From positions 9,386 to 73,385 of the forward strand of contig DXBY01000049.1 in the NCBI GenBank assembly GCA_019116305.1: a stretch of DNA of 64,000 bases, in the 5' to 3' direction. The stretch comes from Candidatus Ruania gallistercoris. Lineage in GTDB: Bacteria > Actinomycetota > Actinomycetes > Actinomycetales > Beutenbergiaceae. This document shows, piece after piece, positions 1 through 20,063 of this stretch. Made by a program: the position numbers and the translations under genes. Under the pieces are notes generated by a model. It had not been told where the DNA came from and did not search any database. It saw nothing but the letters and a program-made list of their open reading frames with translations. How positions within the stretch are numbered: the first letter of the stretch is position 1; the number at the start of each line of letters is the position of its first letter.

Positions 1-1275
1 TTCCCGGCTGCCGGTGCGAGCCGCATCGATCGTGCACCGCTCCACGTACTTCACAGCGCTGACCAGACCCCGTGCGTACTCGGGCAGCGGGTCGACGGCC
101 AGCGGGTGCACCCCCGAGGCGTCCACCCGGCACGGCACCTCGATCACCGCCGCCTCGTCCAGCTCGGCGAGCAGCCCGGCATTGGGGACGTTCAGGATCA
201 GCTCGGCTGCGTCGTCGTGCGCGATGGCGTGCATGATCGCCAGGGCCACCTCGTCATACCCACCGGAGACCAGATCACTCTCGTCCCGTTCAAAGCTGCC
301 GGCCGCCTCCCGGTTGGTGGCCATGTAGGTAGCTTCTCGGTCGGCGCGGGTGCGCTCCCAGAGGTCCTCTGCGCCGGCCGGCGGAAGATCGGCCGCGGCA
401 GTGTAGAAGCCGGCCTGCTGCTGTTCCAGGTACACCCCGCGGGTGGCCTCGGCGGCCGCTTCGGCTGCCTGCGTCTCGCGCTGGAAGTAGTAGTAGTGCA
501 GGTACTCGTTCGGCACTGCGCCGAGGGTCTGGATCCACTCCGGGGTGAACAACCGGCCTTCCTCGAAGGAGGCGATGAGGTCCGGTCGGGCAAGCAGGTC
601 ACCGAGCACGTCCTTGCCGTCCACCTGCAACCCACGGAGCCAGCCCAGGTGGTTCAACCCGATGTAGTCCACGTGCACCGGGCTACCACCCAGGCCCACT
701 CCTGCGCTGCTGCCGGCGGGAACCAGACCCTCACCCTCCAGGGTGGTGAGGACCCGGCGGGCCAGCCCCACCGGGGAGTCGCAGATGCCGATCACGCGCT
801 CGCCGAGGATTCCGGTCATCACCTCGGTCACCATCCCCGCCGGGTTGGTGAAGTTGATGACCCAGGCCTGTGGGCACACCGCCCGGATCCGTTCGGCGAG
901 GTCGACCACCACCGGCAGACCGCGCAGTGCGTAGCTGATGCCGCCCACACCGGTGGTCTCCTGCCCGATCAGCTGGTGCCGCAGGGCGATCCGCTCGTCC
1001 GCGGCCCGGGCGGCGGTCCCGCCCACCCGGATCGCGGAGAACACGAAGTCCGCGCCGGTCAGCGCCTCGTCGAGCTCGGTGCACACCACCACCTCGGGAG
1101 CATCCGGGTGTCCTGCCGCCTGGGCGGCGAGCACCTGCGCGATTCCGCGCACCCGTACCGGGTCGGTGTCGTAGAGGCGCACCTGGGTGACCCGCTCCGG
1201 GGAGGTGTCGGCCAGCAGCGCGCGGTAGACCAGCGGCACTCGGAAGCCGCCCCCGCCGAGGATTGTCAGTCGCAC
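1..1275 (-). CDS. Glycoside hydrolase family 4 (6-phospho-beta-glucosidase-like), 3' end runs off the window
   Basis: Not in the ORF track because it is open at the window edge. My translation from GTG at 1275 gives MRLTILGGGGFRVPLVY...QETTGVGGISYALR...INFTNPAGMVT...IGICDSP, containing the GH4 NAD-binding GGG motif, TNP and the catalytic C. Confidence 0.9.
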   Translation of the reverse strand, partial: MRLTILGGGGFRVPLVYRALLADTSPERVTQVRLYDTDPVRVRGIAQVLAAQAAGHPDAPEVVVCTELDEALTGADFVFSAIRVGGTAARAADERIALRHQLIGQETTGVGGISYALRGLPVVVDLAERIRAVCPQAWVINFTNPAGMVTEVMTGILGERVIGICDSPVGLARRVLTTLEGEGLVPAGSSAGVGLGGSPVHVDYIGLNHLGWLRGLQVDGKDVLGDLLARPDLIASFEEGRLFTPEWIQTLGAVPNEYLHYYYFQRETQAAEAAAEATRGVYLEQQQAGFYTAAADLPPAGAEDLWERTRADREATYMATNREAAGSFERDESDLVSGGYDEVALAIMHAIAHDDAAELILNVPNAGLLAELDEAAVIEVPCRVDASGVHPLAVDPLPEYARGLVSAVKYVERCTIDAARTGSRE

Positions 1276-1327
1276 AGGGCGATCATGTCACCTTTCCGGG
1301 GCCCGGCACGCACCTGACCACCCGTCT

Positions 1328-1418
1328 GAGGTCTCGCCTGCGGACTGAGGTCGTCGCGGCTTACCTCAGTCCGCCGCAGCTACCTCCGAGCGCCGCAGGC
1401 ACCCCCGAGCGCCGCAGT
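1328..1418. repeat. Composite extragenic element with 19-bp periodicity, copy A (includes a 12-bp perfect stem 1340-1351/1363-1374)
   Basis: GAGGT at 1328 and 1347; ACCTC at 1363 and 1382; ACCCC at 1401; CGCCGCAG at 1372, 1391 and 1410. Same geometry as 48278-48360. Confidence 0.8.
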
Positions 1419-4400
1419 CACACGGAGAAGTACTTCGCCTCCGGGTGGTGGAAGACGAGTGCGTCGGTGGACTGCTCCGGGTGCAGCTGCAGCTCCTCGC
1501 TCAGGCTCACCCCGATTCGGTCCGGGCGGAGCAGCTCGACGATCTTCGCCCGGTCGGCCAGGTCCGGGCAGGCCGGGTAGCCGAAGGAGTACCGGGCACC
1601 GCGGTAGGCCACCTTGAACATCCCCTCCAGGTCGTCCGGATCCTCGGCGGCGAAGCCGAGCTCCTCGCGCACCCGGGCGTGCCAGTACTCGGCGAGTGCC
1701 TCGGTCAGCTGCACCGAGAGACCGTGCAGCTCCAGGTACTCCCGGTACCGGTTCTGCGCGAACAGCTCGCCAGTGCGCTCGGCCACCCGCGGGCCGACGG
1801 TGACCAGCTGCATACCGATCACGTCCACCTCCCCGGACTCCCGCGGCCGCACGAAGTCGGCCAGGCACAGGTGCCGGTCCCGGCGCTGGCGGGGAAAGGT
1901 GAACCGGAGCCGCTCGCTGCCGGGCTCCGCGCCGGAGCCGCCGTCCGGGCCGTCGTGGTGCAGGATCACCACGTCATCGCCGTCGGCCACGGCGGGGAAG
2001 TACCCGTACACCACAGAGGGCACGAGCAGATCGTCGGTGGCGATCTGCTCCAACCACTGGCGTAGCCGGGGGCGTCCCTCGGTGGCCACCAGCTCCTCAT
2101 AGCTCGGTCCGTCGCCGCGGCTGGGTTTGAGCCCCCACTGCCCCATGAACGTGGCCCGTTCGTCCAGGAAGGCCGCATACCCGGCCTGGGCGATCCCCTT
2201 CACCACCCGCGTCCCCCAGAACGGCGGGGTGGGCACCGGGTTGTCCGCTGCCACGTCCGACCGTGCCGGCAGCTCTTCCAGCGGGGTCTGCTCGATGGTG
2301 ACCGTGGCATGCCGGCGTTTCTTCAACGGGGGCAGGCCGACGGCGTCGGGAGCCTCTCCACGGGAAACCCGTACCAGCGGCTCCATCAGGCGCAGGCCTT
2401 CGAACGCGTCCCGGGCGTAGCGCACCTGGCCGTCGTAGAGATCGGCCAGGTCGTCCTCGACGTAGACCCGGGTCAGCGCCGCCCCGCCGAGCAGCACCGG
2501 GTAGGTGCCGGCCAGGTCGCGGCCATTCAGCTCCTCGAGATTCTCCTTCATCACCACTGTGGACTTCACCAACAGCCCGCTCATCCCGATCACATCGGCC
2601 TGGTGGGTCTGAGCCGCTTCGATGAAGGCCGACACCGGCTGCTTGATGCCGAGGTTCACCACGGTGTAGCCGTTGTTGGACAAGATGATGTCCACCAGGT
2701 TCTTGCCGATGTCGTGCACGTCCCCGCGTACGGTGCCGAGCACGATCGTGCCCTTGCCGACGTCATCGGCGACCTTCTCCATGTGGGGTTCCAGGTGCGC
2801 TACCGCGGTCTTCATCGTCTCCGCGGACTGCAGCACGAAGGGCAGCTGCATCTCCCCGGCGCCGAACCGCTCCCCCACCACCTTCATCCCGGCCAGCAGG
2901 TGGTCGTTGACGATGTCCAGCGCCTTCCAGCCTTCGGCCAGGCCGGCGTCCAGGTCCTCGGTGAGCCCCTTCATCTCCCCGTCGATGATCCGGCGGGCGA
3001 GCCGTTCGTCCAGCGGCAGACCGGCCAGCTCGGCGGCACGCGCATCCTTCATCGCGGCAGTGTCCACCCCGGAGAACACCTCGAGCAGGTGAGCGAGCGG
3101 ATCATGGGTCATCCCGCCGTCGGCATCGTATTCGCGCTTGTCCCAGACCAGGTCCAGCGCGGCCTGGCGCTGCTCCTCCGGGATCGAGGCGAGCGGGAGG
3201 ATCTTCGCGGCGTGCACGATCGCCGAGTCCAGCCCAGCCTGCACGGCCTCGTGCAGGAACACCGAGTTCAGCACCACCCGAGCTGCCGGGTTCAGCCCGA
3301 AGGACACGTTCGAGACGCCCAGCGTGGTGTGCACCCCGGGGTAGCGCTGCTTCAGCTCGCGGATCGCCTCGATCGTCTCGATCGCGTCCCGCCGGGTCTC
3401 CTCCTGACCGGTGGCGATCGGGAACGTGAGCGCGTCCACGATGATGTCCTGCACGGCCATCCCCCACTGGGTGGTGAGGTCCTCGATCAGCCGGGACGCC
3501 ACCGCGACCTTGTGCTCGGCGGTACGCGCTTGCCCCTGCTCGTCGATGGTCAGCGCCACCACCGCCGCGCCGTGCTCCTTGACCAGCGGCATCACCCGGG
3601 CGTAGCGGGAGGTGGAGCCGTCGCCGTCCTCGAAGTTCACCGAGTTCACCACAGCGCGCCCGCCCACCAGCTCCAGGCCGGCCTGGATCACGTCCGGTTC
3701 GGTGGAGTCGATCACCAGCGGCAGAGTGGAGGCGCTGGCCAGGCGGGAGATCACTTCGTGGGCGTCGCGAACCCCGTCCCGGCCGACGTAGTCGATGCAC
3801 ACGTCCAGCAGGTGCGCACCGTCCCGGGTCTGCGCCCGCGCGATCTGGGTGCACTCGTCCCAGTTCTCGGCGAGCATGGCCTCCCGGAACGCCTTGGAGC
3901 CGTTGGCGTTGGTGCGCTCCCCGATCGCCAGGAACGCGGCGTCCTGGTCGAAGTCGGTGTGCGAGTACAGGCTGGCCACCCCGTGGGTGGGCTCGGGGGT
4001 GCGAGGGGTGATCGGCTTGCCGTGCACGGCCTCCACGACGGCGCGCAGGTGCTCCGGAGTGGTGCCGCAGCAGCCCCCCACCAGCGACAGGCCGAACTCG
4101 GACGTGAACTGGGTGTGCGCGGCGGCCAGCTCGGCGGGGGTGAGCGGATACTCGGCACCGTTCTTGCCGAGCACCGGCAGCCCGGCGTTCGGCTGGCAGG
4201 TCACCGGGATGCTCGCGTGCTTGGCCAGGTAGCGCAGGTGCTCGCTCATCTCGGTCGGGCCGGTGGCACAGTTCAGCCCGATCGCATCGATGCCCAAGGC
4301 CTGCAGCACGGTCAGGGCCGCACCGATCTCCGAACCCATCAGCATGGTGCCGGTGGTCTCCACGGTCACCTGGGCGATGATCGGGATGTCGACGGCGGTG

Positions 4401-4948
4401 CGTTCCCGGGCGATCTTGGTCGCGTTGATCGCCGCTTTCGTCTGCAGCAGGTCCTGGCTGGTCTCGATCAGGATCGCGTCCGCGCCGCCGCGGATCAGAC
4501 CCTCCGCCTGGTCGGCGAAGCTGGCTTTCAGGTCGGCGTAGGGCACGTGCCCGAGGCTGGGCAGCTTGGTGCCCGGTCCCATCGCACCGAGCACCCATCG
4601 CGGCCGGTCCGGGGAACTGTGCTTGTCCGCGCTCCGCCGCGCGATCGCGGCACCGGCCTCGGCGAGCTCGGCGATGCGCTCGACGATGTCGTAGTCGCCG
4701 AGGTTGGAGGCGTTCGCACCGAAGGTGTTCGTCTCCACACAGTCCACACCCACAGCGAAGTAGGCGTCGTGGATGCCCTCGATCACGTCCGGGCGGGTGA
4801 CGTTGAGGATCTCGTTGCAGCCCTCGAGGTCCTGGAAGTCCGCCAGAGTGAGGTCGGCGGCCTGCAGCATGGTGCCCATCGCACCGTCGGCGACCACCAC
4901 CCGCTCAGCGAGGGCATCGAACAGGGCGGTGGAACGGTCTGGGCGCAT
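1418..4948 (-). CDS. metH: Cobalamin-dependent methionine synthase
   Basis: DGAMGTML start, GGCCGT Zn motif, IGERTNANGSK pterin domain, GDVHDIGKN B12 motif, C-terminal RYSFGYPACP. Start moved to ATG 4948, which follows TACACT plus 7 nt. Confidence 0.97.
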   Translation of the reverse strand: MRPDRSTALFDALAERVVVADGAMGTMLQAADLTLADFQDLEGCNEILNVTRPDVIEGIHDAYFAVGVDCVETNTFGANASNLGDYDIVERIAELAEAGAAIARRSADKHSSPDRPRWVLGAMGPGTKLPSLGHVPYADLKASFADQAEGLIRGGADAILIETSQDLLQTKAAINATKIARERTAVDIPIIAQVTVETTGTMLMGSEIGAALTVLQALGIDAIGLNCATGPTEMSEHLRYLAKHASIPVTCQPNAGLPVLGKNGAEYPLTPAELAAAHTQFTSEFGLSLVGGCCGTTPEHLRAVVEAVHGKPITPRTPEPTHGVASLYSHTDFDQDAAFLAIGERTNANGSKAFREAMLAENWDECTQIARAQTRDGAHLLDVCIDYVGRDGVRDAHEVISRLASASTLPLVIDSTEPDVIQAGLELVGGRAVVNSVNFEDGDGSTSRYARVMPLVKEHGAAVVALTIDEQGQARTAEHKVAVASRLIEDLTTQWGMAVQDIIVDALTFPIATGQEETRRDAIETIEAIRELKQRYPGVHTTLGVSNVSFGLNPAARVVLNSVFLHEAVQAGLDSAIVHAAKILPLASIPEEQRQAALDLVWDKREYDADGGMTHDPLAHLLEVFSGVDTAAMKDARAAELAGLPLDERLARRIIDGEMKGLTEDLDAGLAEGWKALDIVNDHLLAGMKVVGERFGAGEMQLPFVLQSAETMKTAVAHLEPHMEKVADDVGKGTIVLGTVRGDVHDIGKNLVDIILSNNGYTVVNLGIKQPVSAFIEAAQTHQADVIGMSGLLVKSTVVMKENLEELNGRDLAGTYPVLLGGAALTRVYVEDDLADLYDGQVRYARDAFEGLRLMEPLVRVSRGEAPDAVGLPPLKKRRHATVTIEQTPLEELPARSDVAADNPVPTPPFWGTRVVKGIAQAGYAAFLDERATFMGQWGLKPSRGDGPSYEELVATEGRPRLRQWLEQIATDDLLVPSVVYGYFPAVADGDDVVILHHDGPDGGSGAEPGSERLRFTFPRQRRDRHLCLADFVRPRESGEVDVIGMQLVTVGPRVAERTGELFAQNRYREYLELHGLSVQLTEALAEYWHARVREELGFAAEDPDDLEGMFKVAYRGARYSFGYPACPDLADRAKIVELLRPDRIGVSLSEELQLHPEQSTDALVFHHPEAKYFSV

Positions 4949-5027
4949 AGGACTGAGTGTAAGGAGAGCGGCACTCCTCCGGGGTGCCATCTCGGATGTG
5001 GGACCGTGCCGACGCCGATCGCCTGCC

Positions 5028-6023
5028 TCACGGGATGTCGACCGGGAGCGGCTCTCGTTCTCCATGGCGGCCCGAGGTCTCGACGCCGGATCGCTGCTGC
5101 GCCACTCGCGTGATGCTCAGCGCGGCGATCCGCTCGGCGTTCCCGATCACCTCGATCCGCACGATCCGGTTCTGCCGCAGACCGAAGGCGTAGACAGCCG
5201 TGGCGCTGGCGCCGGTGGCGTAGATGGCACCGGGCATACCGTCGATCAACGCCCGGCGCGCCTTGGCGGCGCGGCCAGCGAACGCTCGCGCCACCGCATC
5301 CGCTCCGTGCAACGACGGGGCCAGCTCCGGAGCCCCTGCCGCGACGAACGGGGCCGATCCGGCGATCACCTCCTGGTCCGCCCGCAACCGGATCTCCGGG
5401 TCGAGCAGCCGCAGCAAGCTGCCGAAATCTCCCTCGCGGGATGCCCTCAGGAAGGCGTCGACGGCCTCGCTTCGGCGGCGGCGTTCGTGCGGCACATCGA
5501 TGTTGGCCACCCGACGGCGTGCTCGGGAGGCGAGCTGGCGCGCCGCCGCTGAGGACCGCTGCACGATCGGCGCGATCTCATCGAAGGGCACCGAGAACAC
5601 ATCGTGCAAGACGAACGCGAGGCGTTCCAGCGGGGCCAGCTCCTCCACCACGAGCAGTGCCATGCTCACCTCATCGCCGGTGAGCGCCACTACCTCGGGC
5701 ACCTCAGGTCCCTCGGCCGGCGCCAGTTCCGGCAGGTCGGCGCCCAGTTCTTCGTGTCGACTGACCAGGTGCCGCAGGTGGTCGAGGCAGATTCGCGAGG
5801 TGATAGTGGTCAGCCAGGCCTCAAGATTCTCGATACCGCCGGTCTCACTGCGCTGCAGCCGGATCCAGGTCTCCTGCACGGCGTCGTCTGCATCCCAGGT
5901 CGAGCCGAGCATCCGCGTCGCCAGGGCGTGCAGGCGCGGACGCTGCATGGCGAAGACCTCAGCGAGCACAGCAGGCCCGCCCGCCTGCCCGCCGGTGACC
6001 ACCGGTGTCCGTTGAGTCATCAT
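5028..6023 (-). CDS. ECF sigma-70 factor with C-terminal SnoaL-like extension (SigJ/ECF41-like)
   Basis: DADDAVQETWIRL (region 2), LERLAFVLHDVFSVPFDEIA..AARQLASRARR (region 4), and C-terminal VDAFLRASREGDFGSLLRLLDPEIRLRAD. Start at ATG 6023 or 6020. Confidence 0.88.
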   Translation of the reverse strand: MMTQRTPVVTGGQAGGPAVLAEVFAMQRPRLHALATRMLGSTWDADDAVQETWIRLQRSETGGIENLEAWLTTITSRICLDHLRHLVSRHEELGADLPELAPAEGPEVPEVVALTGDEVSMALLVVEELAPLERLAFVLHDVFSVPFDEIAPIVQRSSAAARQLASRARRRVANIDVPHERRRRSEAVDAFLRASREGDFGSLLRLLDPEIRLRADQEVIAGSAPFVAAGAPELAPSLHGADAVARAFAGRAAKARRALIDGMPGAIYATGASATAVYAFGLRQNRIVRIEVIGNAERIAALSITRVAQQRSGVETSGRHGEREPLPVDIP

Positions 6024-6044
6024 TCGCTCCCGTCTCGGTCGGCC

Positions 6045-6071
6045 TGTCACATCTGGCGCGGCCCGCTCGTC
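6045..6071 (+). promoter_or_regulatory. ECF41-type promoter TGTCACA-N16-CGTC driving the FAD oxidoreductase
   Basis: TGTCACA at 6045-6051, exactly 16 nt of spacer, CGTC at 6068-6071. It lies next to an ECF41-like sigma gene. Confidence 0.8.
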
Positions 6072-6134
6072 GTACTGAGTGACACGGGCTCGCGCCGCGT
6101 ACCGTCAGCGAATCGACAGCGAAGGAACTCTCTC

Positions 6135-7463
6135 ATGACCGACCGACACTCCCCCCTCAGCCCCGCACAGGCGTCCGCGCTACCGACCGCCGTCCGCGGG
6201 CGAGTCTGGCTCCCGGGCGATGGCGGCTTCGAGAAGGCGGGCCAGGCGTGGAACCTGGCCATCGACCAGCAGGTCACGGCCGTGGTCGAGGCCGAGGACG
6301 CCGCGGATGTGACCAGCCTCGTCCGGTTCGCGGCTGCGGCCGGGCTCTCGATCGCGACCCAGCCGAACGGTCACGGTGCCACCGGACGGGCCGCCGGCAG
6401 CATCCTGCTCCGCACCGGCAGGCTCGCCGAGATCGAGATCGACGCCGAGCACCGCAGGGCGCGGATCGGCGCGGGGGTCTCCTCCGGCGCCCTGCAGCGC
6501 GCGACCGCCGAGCACGGACTCACCGCCCTGCCGGGCAGCTCCCCGGTGGTCAGCGTCACCGGAGTGGCGCTCGGCGGTGGGCTGAGCTGGTTCGGCCGGG
6601 CGTTCGGCTGGGTCGCGGACAGCATCACCGCGTTCGATGTGGTGGACGCCGCGGGGCAGCTGCGGCAGGTGAGCGCAGACCAGGATGCCGACCTGTTCTG
6701 GGCGCTGCGCGGTGGGGGCGGCGACTATGCGATCGTCACTGGCCTCGAGCTCACCCTCCAGGAGGCGCCGGCCGTCTTCGGTGGCCGGATCGTCTGGGCG
6801 CACGAGCATGCCGCAGCCGTCGCGCACACGTTCGCTGAGGTGACCCGCTCGGCGCCGAACGAGCTCACCCTGTGGCTGGAGCTGATGAACTTTCCGGGGG
6901 CGGATCCGATGGTAGCCATCGACGTCACCTTCCTCGGGCCGGAACTAGCCGCCCGAGAACTGCTGGGGGTCCTCGATGCCCTCCCGGCCCCGCTCAGCGA
7001 CTCCCTCGCGATGATCTCTGTGGCTGAGCTCGGCAGCATCACCGCCGAACCCACCGATCCCAGTCCCGGTATGTCCCGCGCCGCGCTGCTCACCGGATTC
7101 GACGAGCAGACCAGCACCGCCCTGCTGGCCGAACCGATCGCCCCGTTGCTGGGCGTCCAGATCCGCCACCTCGGCGGTGCGCTGGGTCAGGACAGCAACA
7201 GCCCGCACGGCCCGTTGGTCGAACCGTACGGGGTGTATCTGATCGGTTCGCCGGCGCTGGCCGAGGCCACAGCCATCACCGACCGGCAACAGTCCATCCT
7301 CGACGGTCTACCCACCAGCGGGCGCAGACCGGTCACTGTGCTCGCACCGGGCGAGAGCCTCGCCGATGCACTGCCGGCCGACTCGCTGGAGCGCCTGCGC
7401 CGGATCAAGCGCGAGCGCGACCCGCAAGGAGTGTTCCGAGCGAACTTCAGCGTGCTGGACTGA
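6135..7463 (+). CDS. FAD-binding oxidoreductase (FAD_binding_4/BBE-like)
   Basis: ATG 6135 after GAAGGAAC. Motifs ATQPNGHG, RIGAGV, VSVTGVALGGGLSW, LFWALRGGGG and C-terminal IKRERDPQGVF. Confidence 0.88.
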   Translation: MTDRHSPLSPAQASALPTAVRGRVWLPGDGGFEKAGQAWNLAIDQQVTAVVEAEDAADVTSLVRFAAAAGLSIATQPNGHGATGRAAGSILLRTGRLAEIEIDAEHRRARIGAGVSSGALQRATAEHGLTALPGSSPVVSVTGVALGGGLSWFGRAFGWVADSITAFDVVDAAGQLRQVSADQDADLFWALRGGGGDYAIVTGLELTLQEAPAVFGGRIVWAHEHAAAVAHTFAEVTRSAPNELTLWLELMNFPGADPMVAIDVTFLGPELAARELLGVLDALPAPLSDSLAMISVAELGSITAEPTDPSPGMSRAALLTGFDEQTSTALLAEPIAPLLGVQIRHLGGALGQDSNSPHGPLVEPYGVYLIGSPALAEATAITDRQQSILDGLPTSGRRPVTVLAPGESLADALPADSLERLRRIKRERDPQGVFRANFSVLD

Positions 7464-17591: not shown

Positions 17592-17647
17592 GCCTGCGCG
17601 CCGGGCTCTGTCGGCGCGGGTACCCGTGCCGAGCGGTACCCGTGCTC

Positions 17648-17965
17648 TCAGTGCTTCGGCGGCAGGGCGCGCACCTGCGCGAGCGCGTGGGCGACGAGCT
17701 CGGGCAGGTCCTCAGTGTCGGCGTCGACATCGAAAGAGCGCCAGTTCCGCATCCGGCGTCCAGGCATGGCCTCGCCGGCCCGCGGGTCGGCGCGGAGCCA
17801 CTCCGCGTCCGGGTCTACCCGCACGAGGAGCCCGTCAGCGCCGACGGCAACCGTCATGTGGCCGGCCACCAGGAAAGCCAGGCCGCCGAACATCGACTTC
17901 TCCCGGGTGGGCTCATCGGCGAGGAGCGAGCGCACCCGCTCCGCGAGGTCACGATCTACGGGCAC
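17648..17965 (-). CDS. TfoX/Sxy N-terminal domain protein
   Basis: EKSMFGGLAFLVAGHMTVAV...LLVRV. GTG 17965 follows TACGAT plus 6 nt. Confidence 0.85.
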   Translation of the reverse strand: MPVDRDLAERVRSLLADEPTREKSMFGGLAFLVAGHMTVAVGADGLLVRVDPDAEWLRADPRAGEAMPGRRMRNWRSFDVDADTEDLPELVAHALAQVRALPPKH

Positions 17966-18144
17966 AGGCTCATCGTAGGGCGCAGCTACGATTTCGTGCC
18001 GAGACCTACCGCGTGGCGTAGAAGGCAACAGGTGCTGCGGCGAAGACGTTGAGCGAGTGGACCCCTCCCTCATCTGGAGTGCGACCGTAGATCGCGGTGC
18101 CGCTCAGTCTCGGGACCCAGGCTCAGTCGTGCTACCCTTGTGGC

Positions 18145-18193
18145 ACTACATCCCCCACGCCTCTCAACGATGCGCACTTGGGGGATTTTCTCT
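18145..18193 (+). ncRNA. Candidate abiF-type structured RNA (putative antitoxin) upstream of the Abi gene
   Basis: TACCCT -10 box at 18133-18138. Stem ATCCCCCA (18150-18157)/TGGGGGAT (18179-18186) encloses a CGC/GCG inner pair and a CACT bulge, followed by TTTCTCT. Confidence 0.55.
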
Positions 18194-18214
18194 ATCCAGA
18201 TCCTGGAGGCGCGG

Positions 18215-19219
18215 ATGCCCCGGCCGCGAGGCGCTCACCGGCCGCCTCGCCCGCGTGGGGCCCTGTCATACGAGAAGTCGCCCATGGAGCTGGGTGCGCT
18301 CGTTGACCGCCTGGTCGACCGCGGTCTGGTCGTTCCCGACAGGGACCGAGCTCTCCGGTACCTCCGCCACATCGGCTACTACCGCCTGTCGCCTTACACG
18401 ATCCCTTTCCAGCGCGGTGGTCCCGATCATCTCCTGCACGACAGGACCTCCTTCGACGACGTCCTGGGTCTCTACGTCTTCGACCGCGCGCTGCGCCTTG
18501 TGGTCATGGACGCCCTCGAGCGGGTCGAGGTCGCTGTGCGAGCAGCACTCACAGACCACATGTCCACCACTTACGACGATCCGCACTGGTACATCGACCC
18601 CGGGCACTTCAGCGATCGCCGCAAGCACACTCGACTCCTGAGGATCGTCAAGGACAACTGCGACGACCGCCTTCGCGGAACCCCTGACGCCGGTGAGGAC
18701 TCACTGGTCCACCGTTCCGCCCTCGAGCACTACCTCACCACCTACGGTTCCCCTGAACTCCCGCCGTCCTGGCTCATGGTCGAGACCATCACCGTGGGGC
18801 AACTGACCAGTGCATACCGGAACCTCACGCGTCGCGCTGACCGCACTGCCGTCGCCCGTAGTATCGGCCTGACAGCCCCGGTGCTGGAGTCGTGGATGCA
18901 GACCTACGTCCGTGTCCGGAACGTCTGCGCACACCACGGTCGACTCTGGAACGTTGGCCTCGGCGTCTACCCCGCGATACCGAACTCACCTACGGTGTCC
19001 TGGCTGGAGGCGGAAGAAGCACTGCCAGAACGATCCAGAAGGCGGCTCTACCCCGTCTTGGTCTCGCTCCAGACCGTTCTCGAGACGATCTCACCGCGCA
19101 GCAGCTGGGCCCACAGGCTTCATGGTCTAGTCAGCACCAGGCCGGCGATGAACCTTCGCGGCATGGGCATCCCCGACGCTTGGACAAACGACCCGTTCTG
19201 GCGTCGTCATCTCGACTGA
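18215..19219 (+). CDS. Abi family protein (Abi_2, AbiD/AbiF-like) with HEPN RNase motif
   Basis: L..RGL, YLRHIGYYRLSPY, LYVFDRALR..MDALERVEVAVR, and RNVCAHHGRLWN (RxxxxH at 18917-18934). GGAGG RBS at 18205-18209 precedes ATG 18215. Confidence 0.9.
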   Translation: MPRPRGAHRPPRPRGALSYEKSPMELGALVDRLVDRGLVVPDRDRALRYLRHIGYYRLSPYTIPFQRGGPDHLLHDRTSFDDVLGLYVFDRALRLVVMDALERVEVAVRAALTDHMSTTYDDPHWYIDPGHFSDRRKHTRLLRIVKDNCDDRLRGTPDAGEDSLVHRSALEHYLTTYGSPELPPSWLMVETITVGQLTSAYRNLTRRADRTAVARSIGLTAPVLESWMQTYVRVRNVCAHHGRLWNVGLGVYPAIPNSPTVSWLEAEEALPERSRRRLYPVLVSLQTVLETISPRSSWAHRLHGLVSTRPAMNLRGMGIPDAWTNDPFWRRHLD

Positions 19220-19241
19220 ACCTGCTACGAACTGCCATGGG

Positions 19242-20063
19242 TCACCTCGTCGCGTAGAACGCCACCGCCGAGCTCGCCGCGACATTCAGTGAGTCGACCC
19301 CACCCATCATCGGGATGGTCACTCGCCGGTCCAGCGCGCGCTCGGTGGTCGCCATCAGCCCGTGGCCCTCACTGCCCAGGATCAGCGCCAGGTGCTCGTG
19401 GTCCTGCGCCACCAGGTCATCGAGGGTGATCGCGCCCTCCCCCAGCGTCATTCCGGCCACCACGTAGCCGTCATCCTTCAGCTGCTGGATGCCTGCGGGC
19501 CAGTTCTCGATCCGGGTCCAGGGCACCTGGAAGACGGTGCCCATGGACACCCGCACACTGCGCCGGTAGAGCGGGTCGGCACAGGTCGGGGTGACCAGGA
19601 CCGCGTCGACGCCCATCGCCGCGGCGGAGCGGAAGCACGCACCGACGTTGGTGTGGTCGACCAGGCCCTCCAGGATCGCGACCCGGGAGCGACCGGTGCC
19701 GGGCAGCAGGTCCGCCACCTCCGGCAGCACCGGGCGGTGCATCGCCGCGAGCGCCCCGCGGTGCAGGTGGAAGCCGGTGATCGTGCGCAGCACGTCCTCC
19801 TCCGCCAGGTACACCGGGATCTCGCCGTGCTCGCCCGCACCCACCTGCTGCAGCAGGTCCTCCAGGTCCGGCAGCCACTTCGGTGCCATCAGGAAGGACC
19901 GGGGCCGGTGCCCCGCGGCCACCGCGCGGCGGATCACCGTGGAGCTCTCCGCCATGAACAAGCCGCGCTCGACCTCCAGGGTGCGGCGCAGCGCGACATC
20001 GGTCATCCGGGTGTAGTCGGACAGCTCGGCGGCGTCCGGGGAGTCCAGGGTCAGGATCGGCAC
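19242..20063 (-). CDS. TrmH/SpoU family RNA methyltransferase
   Basis: LEGLVDHTNVGACFRSAAAMG, RVSMG, ILGSEGHGL and DSLNVAASSAV. Confidence 0.93.
   Translation of the reverse strand: MPILTLDSPDAAELSDYTRMTDVALRRTLEVERGLFMAESSTVIRRAVAAGHRPRSFLMAPKWLPDLEDLLQQVGAGEHGEIPVYLAEEDVLRTITGFHLHRGALAAMHRPVLPEVADLLPGTGRSRVAILEGLVDHTNVGACFRSAAAMGVDAVLVTPTCADPLYRRSVRVSMGTVFQVPWTRIENWPAGIQQLKDDGYVVAGMTLGEGAITLDDLVAQDHEHLALILGSEGHGLMATTERALDRRVTIPMMGGVDSLNVAASSAVAFYATR

Follow-up and report, generated by a model that had tools for sequence, protein, structure and literature searches.

We analysed a 64,000-nucleotide (nt) stretch of the genome of Candidatus Ruania gallistercoris (assembly GCA_019116305.1, contig DXBY01000049.1, positions 9,386 to 73,385; hereafter the window, in which all positions below are numbered) and found that it contains a 1.15-kb inserted cassette (18083-19241, + strand) composed of a promoter, a hairpin RNA and an abiF-type gene. 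This locus is very likely an AbiF/AbiFr type III-like toxin-antitoxin (TA) and abortive-infection module, in which a predicted HEPN toxin is paired with an RNA antitoxin encoded upstream. The system is already known (AbiF/AbiFr, RCd22), and the locus described here is another actinobacterial representative of it. An initial annotation of the DNA had proposed the same pairing, and both of its halves held up. The AbiF-type HEPN identity of the toxin is supported by full-length homology to PbAbiF, the AbiF of a Prevotellaceae bacterium, with the catalytic R and H residues aligned. The RNA-antitoxin identity is supported by an Rfam match above threshold directly upstream on the same strand and by compensatory changes in the stems.

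A conserved hairpin RNA precedes the abiF-type gene

The segment 18151-18186 (+ strand) matches the Rfam abiF RNA model (RF03085) over all 37 model positions, with a score of 44.2 bits against a gathering score of 37 (E = 1.8e-6), and lies 28 nt ahead of the ATG on the same strand as the gene. Reading the surrounding sequence on the + strand, we found an extended -10 element TGC-TACCCT (18130-18138, with TACCCT at 18133-18138 and TGC before it), a hairpin (18150-18186) with an 8-bp outer stem, a 3-bp inner stem, an 11-nt loop and a CACU bulge, a U-rich tail UUUUCUCUAUCC directly 3' of the hairpin (18187-18198), and a Shine-Dalgarno sequence GGAGG (18205-18209) located 5 nt ahead of the ATG at 18215. 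The arms of the outer stem are ATCCCCCA (18150-18157) and TGGGGGAT (18179-18186), and the inner helix is CGC/GCG. The predicted abiF/AbiFr-type antitoxin RNA would thus measure about 49 nt (18145-18193, + strand), running from a 5' CACUAC through the hairpin to the start of the U-tract. The initial annotation had placed the -10 box, stem, bulge, inner helix, T-rich tail, GGAGG, ATG and the RNVCAH motif of the encoded protein at these same positions. Both the abiF RNA motif and the abiF-type gene are single-copy in the 4.37-Mb assembly, and one motif only was found in 17900-19400, where the tandem repeats of classical type III TA systems were not present.

A scan of one genome per species revealed 20 homologous loci with proteins 68-87% identical, distributed among Microbacterium, Metallococcus, Nakamurella, Paraoerskovia, Terrabacter, Pseudonocardia, Friedmanniella, Saccharopolyspora, Sinomonas, Microlunatus, Arsenicicoccus, Stackebrandtia and Agromyces. 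The full-length gene and its upstream region are both present in 18 of them, the other two (L059 and L060) being cut by a contig end. RF03085 scored above its gathering score directly upstream of the gene in 17 of these 18 loci. The 18th, L056, carries a hairpin with two loop changes that reached 69 bits against R1, a covariance model that we built from the leaders of the actinobacterial clade. The expectation that the hairpin would be kept upstream of homologues was therefore borne out. R1 gave the hairpin of the window 80.4 bits, compared to 44 with the Rfam model, and also detected weaker hairpins ahead of the phylum's more distant Abi_2 genes.

The conserved unit starts with TGnTAnnnT and continues, after 6-7 nt, with CACUAC, the hairpin and its unvarying CACU bulge, UUUUCUCUGCC and, beyond a spacer that varies, GGAGG and ATG. 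TGnTAnnnT is kept at the same position in the 18 full-length homologue loci and in G030, the U-rich tail is kept in the homologue loci, and the CACU bulge and the loop flanks are invariant in the close clade. Furthermore, the 54-nt RNA region is nearly invariant in the close clade while the synonymous sites of the gene are near saturation (synonymous divergence, dS, 0.64-2.1), thereby indicating that selection acts on the RNA sequence itself.

With distant copies added to the R1 alignment, 99.6% of the cells were paired and changes on both sides were observed in 7 of 11 base pairs, a level of covariation reached by none of 500 shuffles and approached by no slid register; this alignment was fitted to the model, so that the test leans towards structure, and its outcome agrees with the independent Rfam model. 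Compensatory changes were found in the outer stem (UCCCCC/GGGGGA, CCUCCC/GGGAGG and CCCGCC/GGUGGG) and in the inner stem (CGC/GCG and AGC/GCU). A MAFFT alignment of the distant hairpins misaligned the 3' arms as bulge lengths differ, and was replaced by the covariance-model alignment.

The gene encodes a predicted HEPN RNase of the Abi_2 family

The abiF-type toxin gene (18215-19219, + strand) runs in frame from ATG 18215 to the stop codon at 19217-19219 and encodes a predicted Abi_2 / AbiD-F family HEPN RNase of 334 amino acids (aa). The protein matches the complete profile of Pfam Abi_2 (PF07751; positions 1-184 of 184, E = 4.5e-48, 164 bits against a cut-off of 25.6), is called AbiD by PADLOC (2.3e-56) and is matched by PHROG 2158, "abortive infection resistance protein". 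Residues 28-330 align full-length with the PbAbiF chain 8VZ6_A (E = 1.6e-48), and in this alignment RNVCAH (codons 235-240, 18917-18934) stands opposite RNSCCH of PbAbiF. The Rx4H dyad of the HEPN domain, formed by R235 (18917-18919) and H240 (18932-18934), is intact; the C. difficile study states that PbAbiF carrying R210A+H215A has no activity (bioRxiv 10.1101/2025.04.15.648962). The ratio of nonsynonymous to synonymous substitution rates (dN/dS) of 0.10-0.16 indicates purifying selection on the gene. An Arg/Pro-rich N-terminal tail of about 17 aa is common to the actinobacterial clade. The 334-aa protein contains a single Abi_2/HEPN unit with no second HEPN domain and the locus has no repeat array, which separates it from Cas13.

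The cassette shows the signs of horizontal acquisition

We consider it highly probable, from its composition and distribution, that 18083-19241 is a self-contained, horizontally acquired AbiF/AbiFr module. DNA shared with the homologue loci starts at 18120-18144, most often at 18128 by the -10 box, and ends near 19222 at the stop codon. Outside these limits, the left end of the insert (18083-18129, + strand), which comprises the promoter-upstream and -35 region, is without conservation between loci, and the right end (19220-19241, + strand) lies between the stop codon of abiF and that of the neighbouring SpoU methylase gene.

The cassette has a GC content of 64.5% compared to a mean of 70.2% for the window, which places it in the lowest 0.3% of 1.1-kb windows, and its GC content at third codon positions (GC3) is 77.6% compared to 87-94% in neighbouring genes. 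It was not found in nine congeners, and within the same family it occurs only in genus g7; an Abi_2 homologue was present in 14 of 401 sampled genomes of the phylum. The initial annotation had noted the lower GC content of the gene and suggested horizontal acquisition. The deviant composition, the single copy and the failure to find the cassette in nine congeners all point the same way, as does the 68-87% amino-acid identity to homologues from unrelated genera, which belong to many actinobacterial families.

The neighbouring genes are unrelated to the cassette and lie on the opposite strand, namely a TfoX_N protein gene (17648-17965, - strand) and the SpoU methylase gene (19242-20063, - strand), and no protein antitoxin gene is adjacent, in agreement with what had first been read there. 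Judging from similarity to TfoX proteins, the TfoX_N start is most likely GTG 17965 rather than ATG 18073 of the list of open reading frames (ORFs). Further out are genes for a 5'-3' exonuclease, an epoxide hydrolase, an epimerase, TetR, a GT4 glycosyltransferase and ABC transporters. Since neither the flanking genes nor those further out are defence genes, the abiF-type gene stands alone.

Several observations were made among the homologues. The loci of Microbacterium luticocti (L043) and Metallococcus carri (L044) are 98.3% identical over positions 1-4391, including the cassette, and diverge thereafter, which indicates either a transfer in the very recent past or an assembly that is contaminated or wrongly labelled. 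In the Arsenicicoccus piscis copy (L057:2920-3962), what appears to be a frameshift has broken the gene into two frames that overlap, and about 75 nt are missing internally from the copy in a Stackebrandtia metagenome-assembled genome (L058:~3348); either decay or assembly errors therefore affect some of the cassettes. Seven genomes from different genera (L041-L046 and L057, ~4030-6900) have the cassette in convergent orientation to the housekeeping genes mutM(fpg)-rnc-yceD, a cluster that is either a favoured landing site or a conserved flank that helped transfer.

Direct repeats flank the cassette

The segment immediately left of the cassette (18006-18082, - strand) is about 71% identical, with a 1-nt deletion, to the segment immediately right of it (19242-19316, - strand), with a local-alignment score 11.7 standard deviations above shuffles (z 11.7). 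The right direct repeat is the functional 3' end of SpoU including the stop codon, and its peptide is identical to that of the congener G006, so that this copy looks native. The left direct repeat covers the final ~24 codons of SpoU plus the stop, and we interpret it as a duplicate of the right one that has since decayed. The best match of its remnant peptide in the genome, besides itself, is the C-terminus of the adjacent SpoU (75% over 20 aa), which ruled out another SpoU paralogue as its source. As for a foreign donor, no SpoU 3' end closer than 74-80% was found in 300 genomes of the order.

We applied the same repeat test to 18 other loci (the distinct full-length loci, 17 in number, the near-duplicate L044, and G030). 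Three of the 19 loci tested show a duplication footprint: the window, L046 (Paraoerskovia) and L056 (an uncultured Microbacterium). The repeats of L046 (2762-2830 and 3976-4045) are 69 nt long and 87% identical; those of L056 (2828-2869 and 4019-4060) are 42 nt long and identical at 41 of 42 positions. The L056 cassette lies within the 3'-terminal part of what looks like a sensor-kinase gene and shortly before an ORF resembling a response regulator, both identities being read by eye from the sequence. The site occupied in L046 is empty in seven relatives (L164-L170). There, the upstream gene converges on mutM, with 24-60 nt between them in L165 and L166, where the gap was measured, and both L046 repeat copies map to one single stretch of L164. 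For L056, no relative held the flank in which an empty site could be sought.

The DNA between the repeat copies measures 1145-1160 nt in all three filled loci. The left junction is sharp in L046 and L056, 43-44 nt upstream of the -10 hexamer; in the window it is blurred by decay and fits this distance only if the repeat was once about 10 nt longer. The cassette carries no recombinase gene, and its junctions show no sequence conservation. As read from these three loci, the footprint is that of a discrete insertion with a long target duplication, for which a staggered cut by a trans-acting enzyme or replication template switching are possible mechanisms. A Campbell-type or homologous single crossover is unlikely, as the three targets are unrelated and 75 nt at 71% identity make a poor recombination substrate. 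We propose only tentatively, and with more doubt than confidence, that the ~1.15-kb abiF cassette is itself the mobile unit, inserting at the 3' ends of genes and duplicating 40-100 nt of target by an undescribed mechanism, without its own recombinase or conserved termini.

The insertion in the window is old, given that the divergence of the repeats (~29%, Jukes-Cantor 0.37) is of the same order as the dS of SpoU against its nearest congeners (about 0.49). Contigs from a bovine metagenome hold the cassette with 5 differences over 1041 nt, along with most of the remnant without differences, showing that the cassette was retained in that strain of the species. In the congeners G004 and G003, TetR and SpoU are convergent and 65-100 nt apart, and the gap is empty. 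In G007 the gap is occupied by a BNR_4 protein, in G008 by a LacI regulator, and in the window by the TfoX gene and the abiF cassette; the differing inserts make it a variable spot in the genus (17592-19241 of the window; L016:1000-3540; L017:930-3440). No TfoX orthologue was found in the congeners searched, with at most 53% identity elsewhere in the order, which argues that TfoX is a separate acquisition. We also considered TfoX and SpoU as ancestral neighbours, and rejected this since SpoU adjoins TfoX in none of 19 TfoX loci.

Copies of the RNA without the toxin gene

The complete single-contig genome of the congener G001, in which no Abi_2 gene was found, contains an orphan abiF hairpin (L082:9973-10009, - strand, corresponding to G001:C1:499372-499408) that scores 48 bits with the Rfam model and 50.7 bits with R1. 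This hairpin lies within a prophage, between a recombination module (exonuclease VIII-like, methyltransferase, RusA) and a packaging module (HNH endonuclease, DNA-binding protein, large terminase, portal, protease, major head protein), which makes the RNA a candidate phage decoy antitoxin. A BLAST search with the orphan RNA against deposited phage genomes gave no match.

Furthermore, we found the abiF loop pattern of the clade in 74 IMG/VR contigs (L086-L159), mostly from low-GC phages with a clean U-run after the hairpin. Using a hidden Markov model derived from 34 homologues, an Abi_2 protein was detected within the fetched stretch in two of the 74 (L136 and L139). Decay of the toxin gene was also observed in G702, a genome of the same family (L084:1484-1760), where the promoter, the abiF RNA and the first ~40 codons are intact and about 240 toxin codons are missing; this copy has kept the predicted antitoxin and lost the toxin. 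Such RNA-only copies fit the pattern predicted for an RNA antitoxin, which can stand alone where its toxin cannot, and those found in phages would fit a decoy role analogous to that of ToxI mimics.

In 21 related viral contigs (L089:5521-5638, L090:2820-2937, L096, L133 and 17 others), a tRNA-Asn(GUU) lies on the same strand within ~20 nt 3' of the orphan hairpin, and in one other viral contig the hairpin is followed by a tRNA-Tyr(GUA). The association of hairpin and tRNA may represent a combined counter-defence unit, or may hint at the tRNA target of the toxin.

Proposed mechanism and alternative explanations

The abiF motif dates from 2017, when it was described as a candidate RNA (Weinberg et al., PMC5737381) and entered Rfam. 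According to the summary given in PMC12737573, a 2025 study described AbiF as a HEPN RNase toxin held inactive by the cis-encoded non-coding RNA AbiFr, with one AbiFr RNA bound per monomer of the AbiF dimer and bulge nucleotides of the RNA blocking the active site, and AbiF is regarded there as the likely ancestor of Cas13. For the AbiFCd-RCd22 system of a C. difficile prophage, it is reported that RCd22 neutralises AbiFCd in cis and in trans, that neutralisation is abolished by stem-breaking mutations and restored by compensatory ones, that a terminator after RCd22 keeps read-through into abiF low, and that deletion of RCd22 increases abiF mRNA 17-fold (bioRxiv 10.1101/2025.04.15.648962).

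From PbAbiF-AbiFr and AbiFCd-RCd22, we infer the transcript ends, binding, toxicity and defence of the module in the window as follows. The extended -10 promoter (18130-18138) would start transcription at about 18145, 5-6 nt ahead of the hairpin, and the first ~49 nt would fold into the abiF hairpin followed by the U-tract. Most transcripts would probably end at the U-tract, or be trimmed to that size, leaving the small RNA in excess; the hairpin would probably double as a leaky intrinsic terminator. Transcripts that read through would carry the hairpin as a 5' leader and be translated into the 334-aa HEPN RNase. The RNA would bind the AbiF dimer and block the R235/H240 active site, and phage infection would be expected to upset the RNA:protein balance, thereby freeing the RNase and arresting the cell.

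The conserved U-tract and the published systems favour the view that a ~50-nt RNA would arise by partial termination and would neutralise the toxin. Processing of the leader by AbiF itself is mentioned as another origin of the short RNA (PMC12737573). Dust-metagenome contigs of other organisms stop matching at 18144 and 18191-18193, which are limits of sequence conservation; they fit the proposed ends of the RNA, marking conservation and not transcripts. Metagenome joints at 18193/19181 and 18063/19518 were not used, as their sides are short and other organisms are their probable source.

Several observations weigh against this mechanism. The stems hardly vary in the close clade, so that the covariation rests on few distant sequences in a model-fitted alignment. 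The folding energy of the hairpin compared to shuffles (z -0.87) is not exceptional for its GC content. The U-rich tail is interrupted by C residues, and a simple terminator scan does not call the hairpin and U-tract. There is one abiF motif only, compared to the two needed by RCd22 and the repeat arrays of classical type III antitoxins. The sole run labelled as RNA is probably DNA and covers the locus in fragments. To our knowledge, the host has no known phage.

With its conserved U-rich tail, the hairpin resembles a terminator, and the U-runs that follow the orphan viral copies are cleaner. A generic sigma-70 scan did not call the extended -10 promoter either. These generic scans found nothing; the promoter is of the extended -10 type, and the hairpin loop exceeds the limit of the scanner. 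Folding energy being uninformative at this GC content and the generic scans blank, support comes from the covariance model and the comparative data.

Among the alternatives, that of a mainly selfish addiction element, whose loss kills the cell and which provides little or no phage defence in its host, would account for a lone insert found outside a defence island (among TetR, TfoX, SpoU, GT4 and ABC transporter genes), for the patchy spread of a minimal cassette unit among genera, and for the decayed copies in G702, L057 and L058. We nonetheless regard it as improbable, as the family was named for abortive infection in Lactococcus, is classed as defence by PADLOC and PHROGs, and has RNA-only phage copies that are most easily explained as counter-defence; moreover, addiction and defence are not mutually exclusive.

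Slightly less probable still is that the hairpin acts only as a cis-acting attenuator or 5' leader limiting abiF expression, and not as a trans-acting, protein-binding antitoxin. The U-tract directly 3' of the hairpin, the position of the latter 28 nt ahead of the ATG and the rise of abiF mRNA upon RCd22 deletion in C. difficile, a transcriptional effect, are all compatible with attenuation. However, attenuation would not require the sequence of loop and bulge to stay invariant across proteins that are 68-87% identical, nor would an attenuator be kept where the gene is missing, as it is in a prophage and in 72 of 74 viral contigs, and direct RNA binding is documented in homologues by the solved PbAbiF-RNA complex and by the trans-complementation of RCd22.

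Finally, although the insertion is old, with repeat copies ~29% diverged, an inactive relic that merely persists with a dead toxin or a silent promoter is extremely hard to reconcile with a full-length ORF whose catalytic dyad is intact, a dN/dS of ~0.1, an intact and conserved promoter, Shine-Dalgarno sequence and RNA, and a cassette kept with only 5 differences in the bovine-metagenome strain.

Significance and comparison with known systems

As a defence module, the AbiF/AbiFr-type cassette of the window is ordinary. It documents a well-bounded and highly conserved actinobacterial clade of AbiF/AbiFr, and its single hairpin, which seems to serve as antitoxin, 5' leader and terminator, offers a compact version in which to study the RNA:toxin ratio. 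The three loci in which the cassette forms a discrete 1.15-kb insert between long target duplications suggest an unexplained route by which single-gene defence cassettes spread, and the RNA-only prophage and viral copies provide matched material for the decoy-antitoxin idea.

The cassette resembles PbAbiF-AbiFr (Prevotellaceae bacterium; PDB 8VZ6) in the full-length homology of the protein, with Rx4H at the aligned position, and in having a single structured RNA directly upstream on the same strand, with a conserved single-stranded bulge next to the stem. It differs in its high-GC actinobacterial host, in the extra Arg/Pro-rich N-terminal tail of ~17 aa, in being known from sequence alone, and in that the hairpin itself is followed by the U-tract and Shine-Dalgarno sequence, so that the RNA gene is also the mRNA leader.

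With AbiFCd-RCd22 of the Clostridioides difficile phi027 prophage (also PMC12373285), it shares an Abi_2 toxin and an RF03085 RNA ahead of the gene; the one promoter of RCd22 gives both a short RNA and a read-through mRNA. RCd22 contains two abiF motifs, has a separate terminator hairpin and is prophage-borne, whereas the window has one motif that apparently doubles as the terminator, with no separate terminator hairpin, in a chromosomal 1.15-kb insert. Compared to the RF03085 model, all 37 positions and the 6+3-bp architecture are matched, while the actinobacterial clade adds a 5' CACUAC, a 3' U-tract and up to two outer base pairs.

Like the classical type III TA systems (ToxIN, CptIN and TenpIN), the AbiF/AbiFr type combines an RNase toxin with an upstream neutralising RNA and a probable terminator-like element that would set their ratio, and is linked to an abortive-infection phenotype and to phages that can carry antitoxin mimics. 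In contrast to these systems, the predicted toxin described here has a HEPN fold and not a ToxN/Kid-like one, and its antitoxin would be a single hairpin instead of a processed tandem repeat array.

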